Part shown: one piece after another, positions 1,729 through 12,283 of the stretch
Layout: each line of letters begins with the position of its first letter
How positions within the stretch are numbered: the first letter of the stretch is position 1
Origin: a virus
Length of the DNA stretch: 12,283 nucleotides
Strand: one strand, 5' to 3'
Virus genome (UHGV): UHGV-0153572
Notes under the pieces: generated by a model
Seen by the model: the letters and a program-made list of their open reading frames with translations, nothing else
Databases searched by the model: none
Told to the model about the DNA's origin: nothing
Made by a program: the position numbers and the translations under genes

Positions 1729-1955
1729 TTTCTTTCCTCTGTTATGCCATCACCCGCGCTCACCTGGACAGTATGCAGCGGAGACTGAAGAGCCGCAATG
1801 CAGGCTTGTCGTGTTGTGAGGTAAGGAGATTTATTCTTAGTGGGATCTTTGCGTGTTGCCTGAAGACGCCCTGTGCGTATCCAGTTAATGGCAGTCGGTC
1901 TGGATATCTTGAGAAAATGACAGGCCTCATCGAGTGTGAGGCTGTATGGCTCCAT
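1605..1955 (-). CDS. xis: Excisionase (Xis), helix-turn-helix excisionase family, 116 aa
   Basis: ATG at 1955..1953 with GAGGTG Shine-Dalgarno 6 nt upstream. N-terminus [33 protein letters not shown] fits the excisionase/AlpA-type HTH pattern. It overlaps the int start by ~120 nt, as in P22 xis-int. The ORF-track entry 1605..2039 is trimmed to the internal Met with an RBS. Confidence 0.75.
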
Positions 1956-2260
1956 TATTTCACCTCTTGCTGTGACATTGTTGAAAAATGGATACCAGCT
2001 CGTTGCTGCCAGACGATCCAACCGAGAGTCATATCCCATGCCATGTATTCGTTATCGCCGTTTTTTGCTCTCCGACGATCTACTAAGTCACCGAAACGCT
2101 TTTCCATGAATAATTCATAAGCTTCGCGTTCATCTGGTTCTACTTCCAGCGATAGGAGTGCGATTTCATAAGCACGGCGCTCAATATCGTCTCGCACGTC
2201 AAGGCTGCTGATACGCTCTTTAATTTCTTTAATCAGTTCTTTGTCGGTAAAAGTGATCAT
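1955..2260 (-). CDS. Hypothetical phage accessory protein (101 aa), acidic, no recognised domain
   Basis: ATG at 2260..2258. Its TAA stop (1957..1955) overlaps the xis ATG (TAATG), indicating translational coupling within the leftward operon. Sequence MITFTDKELIKEIKERISSLDVRDDIERRAYEIALL... Confidence 0.55.
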   Translation of the reverse strand: MITFTDKELIKEIKERISSLDVRDDIERRAYEIALLSLEVEPDEREAYELFMEKRFGDLVDRRRAKNGDNEYMAWDMTLGWIVWQQRAGIHFSTMSQQEVK

Positions 2261-2622
2261 TATGCTCCAGCCTCCGGTGCTTTTGGCATTATTGCCCAGT
2301 GAGTGATATTGACGTTTTCAAGGTCCCCGACCTGAAATGTCCACAGCCATTCTCCGGTTTCTTTTTGTCCCCAGGTGTACCAGAGAGAACGCCAGCCAAT
2401 TAGCCAGCCTTCTCCGTTAGCATCAAATAACAAAACACTTTCATTTGCTGGTGGCAGTTCAGCTGACACTGGTATTACTTTGTTTTCCTGTGCTGCACAT
2501 TTAGCTTCAAGCGCATCGAATTTACGCACCAGGTATTCAGCATCTGTTTCATTTACTTTCAGATCTCGCGGTACACATCTCCCACGAAGAAACCCTTCCA
2601 TTTCGAAAACATTCATGCGCAT
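2260..2622 (-). CDS. DUF551-like phage protein (118-120 aa)
   Basis: C-terminal Trp-rich block WLIGWRSLWYTWGQKETGEWLW...ITHWAIMPKAPE resembles the DUF551 signature (...THWMPLPEPP) common in lambdoid early-left regions. Candidate starts are ATG 2622 or ATG 2616; the latter overlaps the stop of the upstream HD gene (ATGA). Its stop overlaps the next gene's ATG (TAATG at 2258-2262). Confidence 0.6.
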   Translation of the reverse strand: MRMNVFEMEGFLRGRCVPRDLKVNETDAEYLVRKFDALEAKCAAQENKVIPVSAELPPANESVLLFDANGEGWLIGWRSLWYTWGQKETGEWLWTFQVGDLENVNITHWAIMPKAPEAGA

Positions 2623-3149
2623 TTGCGTAACTCCGATAACTCGTTAAAACGTTCCATAAACATCCCGTAGGCATGGCCCGGTGCCTGTGGAATCACTTTG
2701 AACATCTCTGTTGCCGGGATACCTTCCAGTACAGGCCAGAAAGAGCCATCATCAAGCCCGAGATCGCGGCGTTCGGTTGCCAGCATAATGAGATCGGCAT
2801 ATTTCACTGGCGTGCTCATAACAGGAGGTAACCCGTATTTCTCACGTATTACGGCGTCTATTTTTTCTTCCATCCGTTTATAGTCAGGAAGAAGTCGTTT
2901 CAGTGGTGCGGGGATGTCCTGGCAATATGCTTCTGTTGCATCATGCATTAAAGCTTCAAAAGCAAATTCCTGTGGCACCAGCTGGCTGCAAAGCACCGCA
3001 TGTTGGGCGACACTGTAGAAGTGTGAAAGATGTCCTGCAAAGCGACAGATATTTGAAAGGGAAACCGCGATATCGTTAATAACGATGTCGTCTTTATTTA
3101 TCCTGTCATAATAAAAATGCTTCCCGGAAAAAGTTTTAATAAATGACAT
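2613..3149 (-). CDS. HD-domain metal-dependent phosphohydrolase (178 aa from ATG 3149; the ORF extends to a GTG at 3176)
   Basis: H...HD motif context (VAQHAVLCSQ ... EALMHDATEAY) and later acidic residues typical of the HD phosphohydrolase superfamily. ATG 3149..3147 has a GGAGA Shine-Dalgarno 5 nt upstream; the longer ORF-track version starts at GTG 3176 without an obvious RBS. Confidence 0.7.
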   Translation of the reverse strand: MSFIKTFSGKHFYYDRINKDDIVINDIAVSLSNICRFAGHLSHFYSVAQHAVLCSQLVPQEFAFEALMHDATEAYCQDIPAPLKRLLPDYKRMEEKIDAVIREKYGLPPVMSTPVKYADLIMLATERRDLGLDDGSFWPVLEGIPATEMFKVIPQAPGHAYGMFMERFNELSELRKCA

Positions 3150-3273
3150 TTTGTTCTCCACGTATATGCGCTGCACCGCGCTGAATTCGGGTAAAAGGAA
3201 GCCCTCACCGTCCGGCGATTATTGAGTCAATTACATTTCCATAAATGCCCCCGTAGGGGCGGTTAGTTTCTCC

Positions 3274-3362
3274 ACAAAACAGAGAAGAACACCTGCGGTG
3301 GCAGCCGCCCGGATGGATTGGGTTATGAGCCCGTCGTCCGGTGATGCTCTTCTCTGTTTTGT
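3274..3362. repeat. 15-bp perfect inverted repeat (ACAAAACAGAGAAGA at 3274-3288; TCTTCTCTGTTTTGT at 3348-3362) with a 59-bp spacer, in the divergent intergenic region
   Basis: Direct reading: reverse complement of 3274-3288 equals 3348-3362 exactly. Lies between the leftward (int-proximal) and rightward operons. A GC-rich hairpin (GCCCC-CGTA-GGGGC, 3247-3260) lies just upstream. Confidence 0.6.
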
Positions 3363-3407
3363 AAAAAGGACGGTATCCGCCTGACGGCTAATCAGGCATA
3401 TCACCAG

Positions 3408-3611
3408 ATGGTGAAGCTGGGGATCGTCGAGCAGCGCGAACGATACAGCCGTACCGCGATTAACAACATCAAAAAATTCTGGTCGCTGACAGCGAAAGGC
3501 TGCATGTTCGGCAAGAACATCACCAGTCCTGCAAATCCGCGCGAGACGCAGCCGCATTTCTTCGAATCCCGATTCCCTGAGCTGTTAAAGCTGCTCGATA
3601 CCGTTCATTGA
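3408..3611 (+). CDS. Possible small hypothetical protein (67 aa); weak call
   Basis: ATG ORF ending 1 nt before the start of the next gene; amino-acid composition is more protein-like than the overlapping minus-strand 108-aa ORF. No strong RBS identified; could equally be non-coding regulatory sequence. Confidence 0.25.
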   Translation: MVKLGIVEQRERYSRTAINNIKKFWSLTAKGCMFGKNITSPANPRETQPHFFESRFPELLKLLDTVH

Positions 3612-3612
3612 G

Positions 3613-4608
3613 GTGACCGTGAGAGCACTACTGACCCCTGAAATAGCCCCGCGTATGGGGATCGTATTGTTCAGACCCGGTTCAGAGCTGATGCCCCTGT
3701 TTATGCAGGGGCGTGTCCTGCTGGAGCCTGAGCCGGAACGTTATTCATCTTTCGCCAGTGGTGCCGTTCCCGCGGCATCACAACCGCTGGCGGATGATCC
3801 TGCCGTTCGAGCCGTGTTCTGCAATGAGGCAGTGATCCGTCGTGCTGGTGGCGTGGAATGTCTTGAAAGCTGGTTACTTCGTGAAAAGGGCTGTCAGTGG
3901 CCTCATTCCGACTGGCACAGCGAGAACATGACCACAATGCGACACGCGCCGGGCGCGATCCGTCTGTGCTGGCACTGCGATAACCAGCTGCGCGATCAGT
4001 TCACGGAACGGCTGGAATCAATGGCAACGGATAACTGTGCCCGCTGGGTGTTGTCTGTTGTGCGTCGGGATCTCGGTTTTGATGACAGTCACGTTGTGAC
4101 AATGCCGGAACTGTGCTGGTGGCTGATTCGTAATGACCTGGCGGATGCCTTACCGGAAAGTGCAGCCCGTAAGGCACTGAGATTACCGAAGCCTGTTGTG
4201 CCGTCTGTCACCCGGGAAAGTGACCTTGTGCCTTCGGTTCCTGCCACCAGCATCATCCAGGATAAGGCGAAAAAGGTGCTGGCGCTGAAAGTGGATCCGG
4301 AGTCGCCGGAGTCTTTTATGTTACGCCCAAAACGTCGCCGCTGGGTTAATGAAAAGTACACGCGCTGGGTTAAGACACAGCCGTGTGCATGTTGTGGAAA
4401 GCCTGCTGATGATCCCCACCACCTGATAGGCCACGGTCAGGGTGGGATGGGTACAAAAGCGCATGACCTCTTTGTGTTGCCTTTGTGCAGAAAGCATCAC
4501 GACGAGCTGCATGCGGATACCGTGGCATTTGAAGAGAAGTATGGCTCCCAGCTGGAGCTGATATTTCGTTTTATCGATCGTGCGCTGGCAATAGGCGTAC
4601 TGGCGTAA
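3613..4608 (+). CDS. DUF968-like phage protein with C-terminal HNH/zinc-binding nuclease-like motif (~330 aa)
   Basis: C-terminal CACCGKPADDPHHLIGHGQGGMGTKAHDLFVLPLCRKHHDELH has Cys pairs and HH...H spacing like HNH-type modules. Overall architecture resembles the DUF968 (YdfU-type) proteins of lambdoid nin regions as remembered. Start is GTG 3613, or GTG 3619 with a GAGGTG Shine-Dalgarno. Confidence 0.7.
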   Translation: MTVRALLTPEIAPRMGIVLFRPGSELMPLFMQGRVLLEPEPERYSSFASGAVPAASQPLADDPAVRAVFCNEAVIRRAGGVECLESWLLREKGCQWPHSDWHSENMTTMRHAPGAIRLCWHCDNQLRDQFTERLESMATDNCARWVLSVVRRDLGFDDSHVVTMPELCWWLIRNDLADALPESAARKALRLPKPVVPSVTRESDLVPSVPATSIIQDKAKKVLALKVDPESPESFMLRPKRRRWVNEKYTRWVKTQPCACCGKPADDPHHLIGHGQGGMGTKAHDLFVLPLCRKHHDELHADTVAFEEKYGSQLELIFRFIDRALAIGVLA

Positions 4609-4621
4609 GTGGAGAACGAGC

Positions 4622-5350
4622 ATGAACCTTGAAGCTTTACCAAAATATTACTCCCCAAAATCTCCAAAATTGAGTGATGACGCACCGGCGACAGGCTCGG
4701 GTGGTTTAACAATTACAGATGTGATGGCTGCGCAGGGGATGGTGCAGTCGAAAGCACCGCTTGGGTTTGCCTTATTCCTGGCAAAAGTTGGTGTTCAGGA
4801 TCCTCAGTTTGCGATTGAAGGTCTGCTCAATTACGCGATGGCACTGGATAACCCGACATTGAACAAATTGAGTGAAGAAATCCGGTTACAGATCATCCCT
4901 TACCTTGTGAATTTTGCCTTTGCTGATTATTCCAGGTCTGCGGCAAGTAAGGCTCGCTGTGAGCATTGTGCTGGTACTGGATTTCATAATGTATTGCGCG
5001 AGGTGGTGAAACACTCCAGAAGCGGGGAATCTGTTATCAAGGAAGAGTGGGTGAAGGAACTATGTCAGCATTGTCATGGTAAGGGAGAAGTCAGCACAGC
5101 GTGCAGAGGGTGTAAGGGTAAAGGTATTGTCCTGGATGAAAAAAGGACCCGGCTTCATGGCACGCCTGTTTATAAGATTTGTGGGCGTTGCAATGGAAAC
5201 CGATTTAGCCGTTTACCAACCACACTGGCGCGGAATCATGTCCAGAAGCTGGTACCAGACCTGCCGAAGATCTGGGAAAAGTCACTTTCCGCCCGTCCAT
5301 CACGGCTTATGTGGTGGGAGATGACTGCTTTGACCAGCGCGATCGCCTGA
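4622..5350 (+). CDS. Phage antitermination protein Q-like protein with DnaJ-type zinc-finger repeats (242 aa); C-terminus possibly chimeric
   Basis: ATG 4622 with GGAGA Shine-Dalgarno. Four CxxCxGxG-type motifs (CEHCAGTG, CQHCHGKG, CRGCKGKG, CGRCNGNR; nt ~4958-5191). Resembles, from memory, the Q-type antiterminators of E. coli lambdoid prophages that sit next to a DUF968 gene. The last ~30 codons overlap, in another frame, DNA homologous to the DNA-circulation gene. Confidence 0.65.
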   Translation: MNLEALPKYYSPKSPKLSDDAPATGSGGLTITDVMAAQGMVQSKAPLGFALFLAKVGVQDPQFAIEGLLNYAMALDNPTLNKLSEEIRLQIIPYLVNFAFADYSRSAASKARCEHCAGTGFHNVLREVVKHSRSGESVIKEEWVKELCQHCHGKGEVSTACRGCKGKGIVLDEKRTRLHGTPVYKICGRCNGNRFSRLPTTLARNHVQKLVPDLPKIWEKSLSARPSRLMWWEMTALTSAIA

Positions 5351-6465
5351 TTGACGCGCTGAATAAACCCGGTCCCGGCACGCTTGTCCACCCGACATAC
5401 GGTGAGTTGAAAGTCTGTGTTGACGGGGAAGTTCGGGTCAGCACATCGAAGAGTGAAGGGCGTATTGTCCGCTTTGACCTGAAGTTTGTCGAAGCGGGAG
5501 ATCTCTCTTACCCCACATCAGGCGTGGCGACGGCGCAGACGCTGATGTCATCCTGTTCTGCACTGGATGACTGCATCAGTGACAGCTTCAGCGGTTTCAG
5601 TATCGATGGCGTGGCAGATTTTGTGCAGAACGACGTCGTCGGTAATGTCGGCACAATGCTTGGGTATGTTTCTGATGCGATGAAAGTGGTGGATTCTGCC
5701 GTATCGGATGCCGCCAGGCTGTTGCAGGGGGATATCTCGGTACTTCTTCCGCCGCCATCGTCAGGCAAAAATTTCGTTGAGCAGGTGCAGAAAATGTGGC
5801 GTACCGGGAAACGCCTTTATGGTAACGCCAGCGACCTGGTCACCATGATCAAAACGCTTTCCGGTGTCAGCCTTGGCAGCGATCTGCAACCGCGCGGCGT
5901 CTGGAAAACGGACAGTAAAACCACCGCCACGGCGACGCAGCAGCGTAACGTGGTTGCCAGCACCCTTCGTACGACCGCAATCAGCGAAGCGGCGTATGTC
6001 GTCACACGATTGCCTGCGCCCACAACTTCCGCGGTGATGCAGAATGCCACAGTGGGGCAGTCAACAACACCCGCGCAGAGCACCGGCTGGCCTTCTGTCA
6101 CGCATCCGGCACTGAACAATGCACCGGCGGTGAAAAACACGGTTGACCTGCCAACGTGGGAAGAACTGACCGACATTCGCGACACACTGAATACGGCAAT
6201 TGATAAGGAGTTGTCCCGTACAACCAGTGATGCGCTGTTTCTGGTGCTGCGCCGGGTGAAAGCAGATCTGAATGCGGATATCAACACGCGCCTTGAACAG
6301 TCTGCACGGATCATTCAGCGCACGCCGGATGAGGTTTTACCCGCGCTGGTGCTGGCGGCGACCTGGTTTGATAACGCGGCGCGTGACGCGGACATTATCC
6401 GGCGTAATGCCATTACGCATCCCGGCTTTGTGCCGGTGATCCCTCTGAAGGTGCCAGTGCAATGA
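5311..6465 (+). CDS. Mu-type DNA circulation protein (gpN family), N-terminally truncated; possible pseudogene
   Basis: Contains the family block AYVVGDDCFDQRDRLIDALNKPGPGTLVHPTYGELKV. The frame is open upstream only to 5209 (in-frame TAG at 5206-5208) and similarity begins around AEDLGK (~5263). The first possible start is GTG 5311 with no RBS, so ~45-60 N-terminal residues of a typical homologue are absent. Confidence 0.75.
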   Translation: MVGDDCFDQRDRLIDALNKPGPGTLVHPTYGELKVCVDGEVRVSTSKSEGRIVRFDLKFVEAGDLSYPTSGVATAQTLMSSCSALDDCISDSFSGFSIDGVADFVQNDVVGNVGTMLGYVSDAMKVVDSAVSDAARLLQGDISVLLPPPSSGKNFVEQVQKMWRTGKRLYGNASDLVTMIKTLSGVSLGSDLQPRGVWKTDSKTTATATQQRNVVASTLRTTAISEAAYVVTRLPAPTTSAVMQNATVGQSTTPAQSTGWPSVTHPALNNAPAVKNTVDLPTWEELTDIRDTLNTAIDKELSRTTSDALFLVLRRVKADLNADINTRLEQSARIIQRTPDEVLPALVLAATWFDNAARDADIIRRNAITHPGFVPVIPLKVPVQ

Positions 6466-10137: not shown

Positions 10138-10902
10138 ATGCATCGTATAGACACGAAAACCGCGCAGAAGGATAAGTTCGGCGCGGGTAAGAACGGTTTT
10201 ACCCGTGGTAACCCCCAGACCGGCACGCCTGCCACCGATCTGGATGATGACTACTTTGACATGTTGCAGGAAGAGCTTTGTGGCGTGGTGGAGGCATCCG
10301 GTGCCAGCCTGGAGAAGGGGCGGCATGACCAGCTGCTTACCGCGCTTCGTGCGCTGCTGTTAAGCCGCAAGAATCCGTTTGGCGATATCAAATCGGATGG
10401 CACCGTGAAAACGGCTCTCGAAAACCTTGGTTTGGGAGAAGGTGCTCCAGCTATTGGCGTTCCGTTCTTCTGGCCGTCCGCTGCAATGCCAAATACTGTA
10501 ATCGACAGCTGGTCCGGTATGGTGTTTTTGAAGTTCAACGGCGCGAAATTCTCTGCCACTGATTACCCTGTGCTGGCGAAAGTGTTTCCTTCGCTGGTAT
10601 TACCTGAAGCCCGCGGTGATTTCATTCGTATCTGGGATAATGGTCGTGGTGTAGATAGTGGACGTGGATTACTTAGTACGCAGTCTGACCTGATGAAACA
10701 ATTTACTTTGCAATACTACGGTCCTTCTGCTGGTACTGGAACAAGAACGGTTTTCGCCCTCCAGAGTAATGCGAACGGCATATATACGAGTGGTATTAGT
10801 CAGAATGATGGTAGTGGCACCGCTGCGGCTTTTAATGTACCAGGCGGCACCGAAACACGCCCACGTAACATTGCATTCAACTTTTTAGTAAGGGCTAAAT
10901 AA
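10138..10902 (+). CDS. Tail fibre protein (S-type): conserved N-terminal baseplate-attachment region plus variable C-terminal receptor-binding region, 254 aa
   Basis: ATG 10138 with GGAG Shine-Dalgarno. N-terminus [55 protein letters not shown] is the conserved tail-fibre constant region. Codons ~93-101 ([10 protein letters not shown]) are encoded by a Hin/Gin-type crossover-like site. The AT-richer downstream part is the variable region. Confidence 0.85.
10415..10440. other. Candidate Hin/Gin/Cin/Pin-family DNA-invertase crossover site inside the tail-fibre gene
   Basis: CTCTCGAAAACC-TT-GGTTTGGGAGAA: 26 bp with near-symmetric 12-bp arms around a central dinucleotide. It matches the remembered hixL (TTCTTGAAAACCAAGGTTTTTGATAA) at 19/26 positions and shares the AAACC/GGTTT core with gix. 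It sits at the constant/variable junction of the fibre gene, as gix does in Mu S. Confidence 0.55.
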
Positions 10903-11495
10903 TGAAACCTGTTTTTGATAAAAATGGGCTGGCTACAGTACCGGGTGATATGCGTTGTTTTTATTATGATGCAGTAACGTCTGAATATACTGGCTGGTCT
11001 GATGAATATATTAATACTGGTGTAAGTATGCCCGCCTGTTCCACTGGTATTGACCCGGGCGAATACATTCCGGGGAAAGTGGCAGTATTTACGGGTAAGG
11101 GATGGAGCCATGAAGAAGACCACCGCAATGAGACTGCTTACTCAATCGAAAATGGCGCAGCTGTTACAGTGGATTATATCGGTGCCATCAAAGACGGTTA
11201 TGTCACGCTTTCACCGTTAACGCCATACGATAAATGGGATGGTGAGAAATGGGTGACAGATACTGAGGCACAGCATAGTGCCTCAGTAGACGCGGCAGAA
11301 GCACAGCGCCAGTCGCTGATTGATGCTGCAATGGCTTCCATCAGTCTGATTCAACTGAAATTGCAGGCCGGGCGGAAGCTGACGCAGGCAGAAACAACCC
11401 GACTTAACGCCGTGCTGGATTACATTGACGCGGTGACGGCAACAGATACCAGCACCGCGCCGGATATCATCTGGCCTGAACAGCCGGAGGCGTAG
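10902..11495 (+). CDS. Tail fibre assembly chaperone (Tfa / Mu U-type), 197 aa
   Basis: ATG 10902 overlaps the tail-fibre stop (TAATG). N-terminus [36 protein letters not shown] and C-terminal DTSTAPDIIWPEQPEA are characteristic of the Tfa family. Confidence 0.9.
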   Translation: MKPVFDKNGLATVPGDMRCFYYDAVTSEYTGWSDEYINTGVSMPACSTGIDPGEYIPGKVAVFTGKGWSHEEDHRNETAYSIENGAAVTVDYIGAIKDGYVTLSPLTPYDKWDGEKWVTDTEAQHSASVDAAEAQRQSLIDAAMASISLIQLKLQAGRKLTQAETTRLNAVLDYIDAVTATDTSTAPDIIWPEQPEA

Positions 11496-11907
11496 GCCAT
11501 TCAATATCTGGAGCACTGGAAGTATCGACCAGTTCCAGTGCGTCAAGATAATCCAGCCATAAATTATATTGCGCCAGTTCCTCACCTTTCAGACGACCAA
11601 TAGCAGCCTTTCCTGGCCACTGCTTACTGTTAATATATTCATTAACTCGATTTATGAGTGCCTGTTTTTTTCGTTCCGCTTCTGACAGTTGTTCTTCATG
11701 AGTTAGCGGCGGTACGTCATCCCATGCAGGATAGCCATCATCACCCGCAACTCTCACTTTCCCTGGAGGTGGGGACAGGTACTTAATAAATATATCCTCA
11801 TCAACTTCAACTCCATTATGAGGCCATAACCCAGACTTCTTATACTGACTTTCCAGAGTAAATGGGTAAAACATATTAGTTTTAGCATCGTAAAGATATT
11901 TACTCAT
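11467..11907 (-). CDS. Second tail fibre assembly chaperone (Tfa'-type), inverted orientation, 146 aa
   Basis: ATG 11907..11905 with AGGAAG Shine-Dalgarno 7 nt upstream. C-terminus ...LVDTSSAPDIEWPTPPAVQAR carries the Tfa family motif. Its 3' end overlaps the plus-strand tfa 3' end convergently by 29 nt. The ORF-track version (to 12006) is trimmed to the Met with an RBS. Confidence 0.8.
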   Translation of the reverse strand: MSKYLYDAKTNMFYPFTLESQYKKSGLWPHNGVEVDEDIFIKYLSPPPGKVRVAGDDGYPAWDDVPPLTHEEQLSEAERKKQALINRVNEYINSKQWPGKAAIGRLKGEELAQYNLWLDYLDALELVDTSSAPDIEWPTPPAVQAR

Positions 11908-11908
11908 T

Positions 11909-12283
11909 TTATCTTCCTGTGGCAAACCAGCGGCAACCAGCGACAGTTGGAACATTGAAGGATGGATTTCCTTTATCAAGAGATCCCAGGTTATCTGCCA
12001 TGACACTTGAGTTAGTCAATTGATAGAATTGCCATACTGACATTTTCCCTGGCACAGGAGCATGGTCATGTTCATTAATAGAAATGACGCCTGTCGGAAA
12101 TGGGATAGGAAAATTAATCAAAACTTCATTTATTGTGGCCCCAGTTAGCCCCCATTGTTCAATATAACCATCCGGGCTTCGCCTCCATCCCGTCGTTGTA
12201 TCTCCCCAAAAGCCAAGAACTCGGACATTGGCAGCAGCACCAGCATGTGGATCAGTGCTACATCCATTTTGGTATCTCTTGCA
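11909..12283 (-). CDS. Partial CDS (C-terminal 124 codons; 5' end beyond the window): alternative tail-fibre C-terminal (receptor-binding) region
   Basis: Minus-strand frame is open from the window end to the TAA at 11911..11909, 1 nt before the tfa' start. Translation ...ANVRVLGFWGDTTTGWRRSPDGYIEQWGLTGATINEVLINFPIPFPTGVISINEHDHAPVPGK... contains the PDGxIxQWG-type motif of tail-fibre distal domains and a diverged copy of the LGxGxG junction. Confidence 0.7.
   Translation of the reverse strand, partial: CKRYQNGCSTDPHAGAAANVRVLGFWGDTTTGWRRSPDGYIEQWGLTGATINEVLINFPIPFPTGVISINEHDHAPVPGKMSVWQFYQLTNSSVMADNLGSLDKGNPSFNVPTVAGCRWFATGR

Follow-up and report, generated by a model that had tools for sequence, protein, structure and literature searches.

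The stretch analyzed here (the window) comprises 12,283 nucleotides of the viral genome UHGV-0153572 and carries on its plus strand a gene of the DUF968/YdfU family, which is the subject of this analysis. An earlier note had placed this gene in the open reading frame (ORF) 3613–4608, which is indeed uninterrupted in the ORF listing. Stop codon and frame stand as given there, whereas the start has to be moved by two codons. GTG 3619 is almost certainly to be preferred over GTG 3613, because the homologues start with MRALL, the PGAP coding sequence begins there (3619–4608, WP_044864229.1), the PHROG 96 alignment opens at residue 3 of the longer, 331-residue reading, and a GAGGT motif lies upstream. 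MRALL forms the N terminus of all homologues in two alignments, A1 (close homologues, at least 69% identity) and A2 (28 full-length homologues with 26–51% identity, drawn from an exhaustive HMMER search with 3098 relatives). The GAGGT (3610–3614, plus strand), which reads as a Shine–Dalgarno-like element, is located 4 nt upstream of GTG 3619 and overlaps the stop codon of a KilA-N remnant. The gene, as delimited by the ORF, PGAP, Pfam, and PHROG, thus spans positions 3619–4608 (plus strand; 329 codons and the stop), and all residue numbers refer to this 329-amino acid protein.

Profile searches assign the protein to its family unambiguously, in agreement with the earlier proposal of a DUF968-like protein. 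Pfam DUF968 (PF06147) is matched at model positions 2–171 of 171 with 271.7 bits (cutoff 27.8, E = 3.5e-81). The Pfam model covers residues 160–326 (positions 4096–4596, plus strand) and comprises a helical segment, a linker, and the HNH domain. PHROG 96, annotated “HNH endonuclease,” matches over the full length (E = 1.1e-176), and HNHc_6 (PF16784) matches residues 251–308 (58 residues; model positions 123–184 of 204) with 26.9 bits, just above its cutoff of 26.6, whereas a search of NCBIfam returned zero matches for the protein. Together, the DUF968, HNHc_6, and PHROG 96 similarities are far beyond chance, and on these profiles the protein is a genuine DUF968 member as well as a His-Me finger protein. 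The gene is under strong purifying selection, with a ratio of nonsynonymous to synonymous polymorphism (pN/pS) of 0.02–0.08 across 74 alleles.

The gene is intact, ordinary, very common, and catalogued, and its HNH nature is already known; thousands of genomes carry an annotation of this sequence. Recombination-nuclease and HNH literature on the family dates back to 2014, when DUF968 fusions to Erf, Rad52, and RusA were also put on record (PMC4118853). An HNH assignment was printed for DUF1364 in 2016 (PMC4999995), and Jablonska et al. placed DUF968 in His-Me finger group 7 in 2017, including a recombination hypothesis (PMC5714182). Both the HNH assignment and the recombination-nuclease hypothesis of the earlier note were therefore already in print. 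A Gram-positive relative was characterized biochemically in 2026 (PMC12817073).

The C-terminal module (residues ∼245–329) is predicted to assume a zinc-stabilized His-Me (HNH) ββα-metal fold. Its core, residues 256–298 (positions 4384–4512, plus strand), was delimited by alignment to Gp16 of the staphylococcal phage PhiNM1, by conservation, and by the secondary structure of an AlphaFold2 (AF2) model. It corresponds to the Cys/His stretch CACCGKPADDPHHLIGHGQGGMGTKAHDLFVLPLCRKHHDELH, whose 43 residues are encoded exactly at 4384–4512, as quoted in the earlier note. The stretch lies in the C-terminal part of the protein, as had been stated, but not at its extreme end: another 31 residues (helices 301–324) follow to the C terminus and are part of the same domain.

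By hhalign, the module aligns with Gp16 (95%, E = 3.8e-8), with Escherichia coli YbcO (PDB code 3G27; 81%, E = 1.2e-5, 74 columns), and with Ref of phage P1 (78%, E = 1.8e-5). Gp16 itself scores on both HNHc_6 (E = 5e-117) and DUF968 (29.1 bits). In Gp16, zinc is held by C145, C148, C181, and H184, and the active site contains H157, H185, and H189 (PMC12817073). The zinc ligands align one-for-one with C256, C259, C290, and H293 of the window protein, and the active-site residues with H268, H294, and H298, so that all seven residues mutated in Gp16 are identical here. We counted conservation over 75 cluster representatives (50% identity) that cover the HNH region. H267 is kept in 70, H268 in 71, H294 in 69, and H298 in 67 of the 75, D283 of the GxGxK..D loop is invariant (75/75), and position 293 is His or Cys in 59/75. 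Overall, the catalytic and zinc residues are kept in about 90–95% of the representatives.

The AF2 model computed from A1 was poor (predicted local distance difference test, pLDDT, 69.8), and its PDB matches were meaningless; it was superseded by a run on the diverse A2, which reached a mean pLDDT of 89. In the latter model, β-strands 265–268 and 286–289 and α-helix 291–299 form a ββα unit, followed by helices 301–324. A Foldseek search of this model against BFVD matched the C-terminal ∼90 residues only. Stand-alone DUF968/YbcO-like phage proteins ranked first (E = 8.5e-8, template modeling (TM) score 0.77, root mean square deviation 0.9), and Ref-like RecA_dep_nuc proteins followed with probabilities of 0.97–0.99; the matches to DUF968, Ref-like, and HNH proteins overall had probabilities of 0.97–1.0.

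The reading as a zinc-binding HNH fold, which the earlier note had put forward, is well supported because of the residue correspondence with Gp16 and the conservation among the 75 representatives; the HNHc_6 match above cutoff, the hhalign results for Gp16, YbcO, and Ref, the predicted ββα unit, and Foldseek point the same way. Profile search and structure prediction, which had been proposed as checks, hence returned DUF968/HNH similarity and a ββα prediction. The domain boundaries have to be revised, however. The note had described the HNH fold as attached to a ∼280-residue uncharacterized region. According to the profile matches, the HNH module sits inside the Pfam DUF968 model (160–326) rather than being appended to DUF968, and the part that is left without a family assignment is the N-terminal ∼160 residues, not ∼280. 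With these small corrections to start codon and domain boundaries, the evidence supports the earlier interpretation as essentially right.

The N-terminal domain (residues 1–158; positions 3619–4092, plus strand) appears to be specific to the family. AF2 modeled it confidently from A2 (pLDDT 80–96). We found no match to Pfam for any of 28 diverse members, no match among the PDB sequences, and no relative in the PDB and BFVD fold libraries searched with Foldseek. In an architecture search, the domain occurred only joined to DUF968 or as fragments, apart from a few apparent frameshift or assembly chimeras. For Gram-positive DUF968 members, an Orf/NinB-like N-terminal domain has been proposed (PMC4118853). 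We rejected this candidate for the window protein, in view of the hhalign values (0.1% for λ Orf, 0.2% for Gp16) and the missing fold match to PDB code 1PC6; judged by these comparisons, the published suggestion does not hold for the clade of the window protein.

The N-terminal domain contains a putative second zinc site of treble-clef-like appearance, formed by C92, H100, C117, and C120 together with W118 and D121 (positions 3892–3993, plus strand), as suggested by conservation and the AF2 model. Counted over representatives, with denominators that vary with coverage, C92 is kept in 70/72, C117 in 74/74, and W118 and D121 each in 66/74. Position 100 is His in 46 and Cys in 25 of 74 representatives (His or Cys in 71/74), and position 120 is Cys in 37 and His in 37 (74/74). 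The cluster lies on a predicted β-hairpin (residues 104–117), followed by a helix (118–124), which is the topology of a treble clef. When compared with the C-terminal HNH or with Gp16, the cluster twice aligned in the same register as the real HNH; the probability was <1% and not significant. An internal duplication, with the N-terminal domain as a copy of the C-terminal HNH, is accordingly not significant and is retained as speculation only.

The two modules are joined through a conserved basic linker, DPESPESFMLRPKRRRW (residues 226–242; positions 4294–4344, plus strand), which is predicted to be flexible from A1, A2, and the AF2 model. In A1, P230–W242 are invariant except for the nearly invariant R236. 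In A2, K238 is invariant among homologues down to 26% identity, and P237 is nearly so. The block 221–230 has a pLDDT of 63. By analogy with the basic N terminus of Ref (PMC4330346), the linker may be a contact motif for DNA or a partner protein. Four A1 homologues (P0040, P0050, P0066, and P0073) are mosaic: their residues 1–120 are strongly diverged, whereas residues 121–300 are almost identical to the window protein. Such a pattern suggests an intragenic recombination breakpoint directly behind the N-terminal zinc cluster.

The surroundings of the gene are those of a decayed prophage. The 2.4 kb around it are 100% identical to the chromosomes of E. coli E4 and TUM10008. In strain E4, the annotation runs from an integrase, a helix-turn-helix (HTH) protein, yfdT, yfdS, and yfdR to a KilA-N pseudogene, DUF968, a Q pseudogene, and a truncated Mu-N-like gene, after which baseplate, tail-fiber, and pin genes follow. 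Homology to lambdoid phages opens at ∼3372, right after the CPS-53-type yfdR-yfdS-yfdT block (1955–3176, minus strand), and stops at ∼5264–5267, according to the extents of the megablast matches. Immediately upstream of the DUF968 gene lies the KilA-N domain pseudogene (3363–3611, plus strand), whose N terminus is deleted (PGAP, PHROG 129/6486). Downstream lies a Q-type antiterminator gene that has lost its C terminus (4622–5263, plus strand; Pfam Antiterm E = 9.7e-42, pseudogene in PGAP). The ORF 4622–5350 represents this Q-type antiterminator, cut at ∼5263 and continued into unrelated sequence. The Q part contains a match to the DnaJ-type CXXCXGXG zinc finger that stays below the Pfam cutoff (31.1 versus 32.7 bits). 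The Q remnant adjoins a 5′-truncated Mu-N-like DNA circularization gene (5266–6465). Further downstream, the tail-fiber assembly genes are convergent and overlap (10902–11495, plus strand; 11467–12006, minus strand), and in strain E4 a pinE invertase adjoins this pair just past the end of the window, which is the usual e14/Mu-type invertible host-range segment.

The central part of the locus (∼3372–5266) matches 4009 of 5426 complete E. coli genomes by megablast, at a median of two places per genome, whereas the exact arrangement and junction are found in only 2 of the 5426. The gene is a lambdoid fragment stranded among unrelated pieces of a deletion-riddled prophage, since its neighbors are truncated and positions 3100–5400 contain no recognizable promoter. 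The locus has lost the phage early promoter, the replication genes, and RusA. The gene is thus probably left without its native promoter, and because it has no recognizable promoter of its own, it is probably silent or expressed via read-through only. In K-12, a very strong Rho-dependent terminator precedes the paralogous ydfU and has been discussed as silencing toxic prophage genes (PMC9160355).

At this locus, the ORF may consequently be nothing but a functionless relic that has stayed intact through recent prophage decay and is not expressed, a reading to which we give an even chance. The truncated pseudogenes on either side, the loss of early promoter, replication genes, and RusA, the failure to find a σ70-like promoter within 3100–5400, and the restriction of the exact arrangement to 2 of 5426 genomes all agree with it. 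However, the protein bears no disabling change, being 100% identical to the copy on a viral contig from IMG/VR (L013) and 99.4% identical to that of phage mEp460, and read-through transcription is possible. The relic reading bears on expression in this host, not on the identity of the protein.

In functional lambdoid phages, the gene has a defined place. Homologues with at least 98% identity are found in mEp460, SfII, SfIV, and many Stx2 phages, and more distant full-length homologues in phages of Klebsiella, Salmonella (ST64B), Yersinia, Hafnia, Morganella, and Vibrio, as well as in P1 (PdcB). With its counterparts in active lambdoid phages (mEp460, SfII/SfIV, and Stx2 phages), the window protein shares 99–100% identity. 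In mEp460, Stx2a WGPS2, ST64B, and Hafnia yong2, the order is Dam - RusA - (KilA-N) - DUF968 - Q. We counted synteny in 80 IMG/VR contigs whose protein is at least 98% identical (found via A1), i.e. among close relatives only. RusA and KilA-N lie upstream in 76/80 and a Q gene downstream in 78/80, and none of the 80 has NinG, NinB, or YbcO within 6 kb. DUF968 thus closes the early rightward operon (RusA - KilA-N - DUF968 - Q), and the lambdoid nin-region context named in the earlier note is borne out by its position directly upstream of Q.

Within these 80 contigs, RusA-KilA-N-DUF968 travels as one block. The Q types that follow the near-identical DUF968 genes are unrelated (mEp460/λ-like in 45 contigs, Stx2/QuuD-like in 33), and the DUF968-Q boundary is therefore a point of module exchange. 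The ST64B copy (L012:3537–4491) is split into sb47 (“HNH endonuclease”) and sb48 (“DUF968”), apparently by a frameshift. In a genome-wide association study of Shiga toxin-producing E. coli, a ydfU allele was among 26 accessory genes linked with haemolytic uraemic syndrome (odds ratio 4.3, PMC11950266). This association probably reflects linkage to stx2 phages, in which the gene lies beside Q.

We favor the explanation that this two-module DUF968 protein works as a nickase or endonuclease on intermediates of recombination or replication, which by analogy with its relatives we regard as reasonably probable. In the C-terminal module, which would belong to the same subgroup as YbcO, P1 Ref, and PhiNM1 Gp16, C256, C259, C290, and H293 would coordinate the structural zinc ion. 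H268 at the end of the first strand would serve as the general base that activates the attacking water, and H267, H294, and H298 would bind the catalytic divalent metal. The N-terminal module (∼160 residues) would most likely supply substrate or partner recognition, and the basic linker would help in targeting. The protein may thus nick or cut DNA that is branched or bound by RecA, for example D-loops and replication intermediates that have stalled or are recombining, and may act alongside the adjacent RusA resolvase, thereby favoring recombination-dependent replication of the phage, as Ref and Gp16 do. A role on recombination intermediates agrees with the hypothesis printed for His-Me group 7 (PMC5714182). 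The data themselves show family membership, a predicted fold, conserved residues, synteny, and purifying selection; nuclease activity, substrate, the link to RecA, and the state of expression are what we infer.

Several observations speak against this explanation. The characterized proteins, Ref and Gp16, are relatives, and no enterobacterial DUF968 member is among them. The N-terminal domain is unlike the NinB/Orf-like one of Gp16, so that the RecA link is not simply transferable. In Gp16, the H157A exchange, the equivalent of H268, had no growth phenotype (PMC12817073). Against a Ref family cutoff of 26.9 bits, the full-length protein scores only 12.6 bits and its C-terminal fragment 18.2 bits. 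Foldseek of the A2 model against the PDB gave no significant match (best E = 0.11), although the top weak matches were all HNH proteins (McrA, Cas-HNH Cascade, Cap5, and IscB). A profile search of the PDB sequences was likewise without significant match, and searches with the single protein, A2, and alignment A3 returned a weak YbcO match (E = 1.2) or noise. With no σ70-like promoter in 3100–5400, activity in the present host is doubtful. Finally, some full-length members, such as P1 PdcB, possess none of the catalytic histidines, yet the rest of the protein is kept; the persistence of such members indicates a function of the family that is independent of catalysis.

This last point also bears on a different reading, namely that the protein is a non-catalytic DNA-binding or regulatory protein which uses its two zinc modules for binding to DNA or a partner and acts in timing the early-to-late switch, with a vestigial HNH site. 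In phages unrelated to each other, the gene directly precedes that of the late-gene regulator (Q in lambdoid phages, Lpa in P1), PdcB and a few other members have lost all catalytic histidines while keeping the four cysteines and the N-terminal domain, and a member from Arsenophonus carries the annotation of a transcriptional regulator (PMC5714182). We nevertheless consider a purely regulatory protein quite unlikely, given that the HH...H...H set is complete here and in about 92–95% of the representatives and under strong purifying selection, which is unexpected for a vestigial site, and that Pfam revealed no HTH or other regulator domain.

Roles in packaging or homing are common among phage HNH proteins. 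An HNH endonuclease that takes part in packaging and stimulates terminase cleavage, as in the HK97 gp74 type, or a homing endonuclease of the selfish kind would agree with the location of the P1 homologue, which lies upstream of pacA/pacB at a distance of two genes. However, this P1 copy is predicted to be catalytically dead, and in all lambdoid contexts examined the gene precedes Q and the lysis genes and is remote from terminase. Moreover, the locus is constant and syntenic, with no intron or intein context. His-Me group 7 is distinct from the HNH families of the gp74 and homing types, and of 28 DUF968 members a single one matched the general HNH model PF01844 (E = 0.15). We therefore regard either role as highly improbable.

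The earlier note had also considered inter-phage competition. A nuclease for host takeover or competition would damage host or rival phage DNA rather than serve phage recombination. In line with this, overexpressed Gp16 arrests the growth of Staphylococcus aureus, condenses the nucleoid, and suppresses host replication (PMC12817073), P1 Ref increases the lethality of ciprofloxacin (PMC4713147), and the strong Rho-dependent terminator ahead of K-12 ydfU has been discussed as a means of silencing toxic prophage genes (PMC9160355). In contrast, no family of the PADLOC-DB defense models matched at E ≤ 0.1, the gene occupies a fixed early-operon position beside RusA rather than a moron or variable site, and phages with many unrelated backbones, P1 among them, have retained it. 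Such a role seems unlikely to us as an alternative, and it overlaps with the recombination-nuclease explanation instead of excluding it.

The recombination-nuclease explanation can be extended, with little confidence, to a tandem zinc-finger enzyme. Its N-terminal domain would be a degenerate, non-catalytic HNH treble clef that recognizes DNA with branches or a RecA coat and guides the active HNH at the C terminus, and the pair of RusA and DUF968 would replace λ Rap in many lambdoid phages, those carrying Stx2 included. If this were true, the gene would help to determine how well the phage replicates after induction, and hence how much toxin is made, and catalytically dead members such as PdcB would keep only the targeting function.

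Little is to be gained from the locus itself, which is a standard, annotated component of lambdoid prophages with an HNH literature since 2016–2017. The family is noteworthy, as it matches DNA in about three-quarters of complete E. coli genomes, lies beside Q in Stx2-converting phages, and is under strong purifying selection. Among its characterized relatives, the closest are the RecA-linked nucleases Ref and Gp16, which influence the replication of phages and the lethality of antibiotics. What remains of interest is the biochemistry of a phage gene this widespread, together with an orphan domain at its N terminus that has a putative zinc site.

When compared with known systems, the window protein shares its niche with λ Rap (NinG), a branch-specific HNH-like endonuclease that is likewise encoded in the nin region between the replication genes and Q. 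Both Rap and DUF968 have been proposed to act on recombination intermediates. NinG is absent from 80/80 DUF968 contigs examined, which carry RusA instead. Homology to Rap/NinG (PF05766) was rejected (hhalign 4.6%, E = 0.0087, 13 columns; no Pfam match).

YbcO, Ref, and HNHc_6/Gp16 are, by their alignments, profile-level relatives of the window protein, which itself belongs to none of their families. YbcO of DLP12 (DUF1364, PF07102, PDB code 3G27) aligns in the HNH domain and the C-terminal helices. Like DUF968, it is a nin-region gene that adjoins rusA upstream of Q, and a His-Me nuclease beside RusA just before Q is therefore a recurrent module. YbcO consists of the 96-residue nuclease domain alone, without N-terminal domain or linker, and forms a separate Pfam family; in a Pfam search, PF07102 gave no significant match to the window protein and matched 1 of 28 family members (E = 0.16).

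P1 Ref (PF16786, PDB code 3PLW), a RecA-dependent HNH nuclease (PMC3973344, PMC4330346), has the same HNH subtype, including the PLCR(K/W)HH helix motif. The nuclease core of both proteins follows a basic stretch that is probably flexible. Whereas the N terminus of Ref is a disordered stretch of 76 residues, the window protein possesses a folded domain of 160 residues, putatively of the zinc type.

PhiNM1 Gp16, a RecA-binding HNH nickase needed for phage replication (NAR 2026, PMC12817073), has a homologous HNH core with the shared pattern CxxC...H...CxxHH...H. Both Gp16 and the window-type gene are encoded in early operons near ssb, replication, and RusA genes. Gp16 carries a NinB/Orf-like N-terminal domain, to which that of the window protein is dissimilar, and the HNHc_6 match of the latter accordingly does not extend over the full length of the model with its NinB/Orf-like part.

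P1 PdcB (L006:5001–6044) is a full-length homologue with 26% identity over 329 residues (E = 6e-41) and matches the DUF968 model with E = 3.6e-50. It keeps the N-terminal domain and the four cysteines, but its catalytic histidines, all of which are retained in the window protein, are replaced (HH by PY, H294 by Q, and H298 by E), and from these exchanges PdcB is predicted to be inactive. The pdcB gene lies between phd/doc/pdcA and lpa-pacA-pacB, directly upstream of the late-gene activator, like the lambdoid copies.

YdfU of the K-12 prophage Qin is a full-length homologue with the same two-module architecture, the HNH motif, and a site upstream of Q (PMC5714182). The window protein shares ∼47–50% identity with YdfU, as measured on phage-borne copies annotated ydfU (H40 and H41) and not on the K-12 sequence. 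Unlike YdfU, it belongs to the allele group of mEp460, SfV, and the Stx2 phages.

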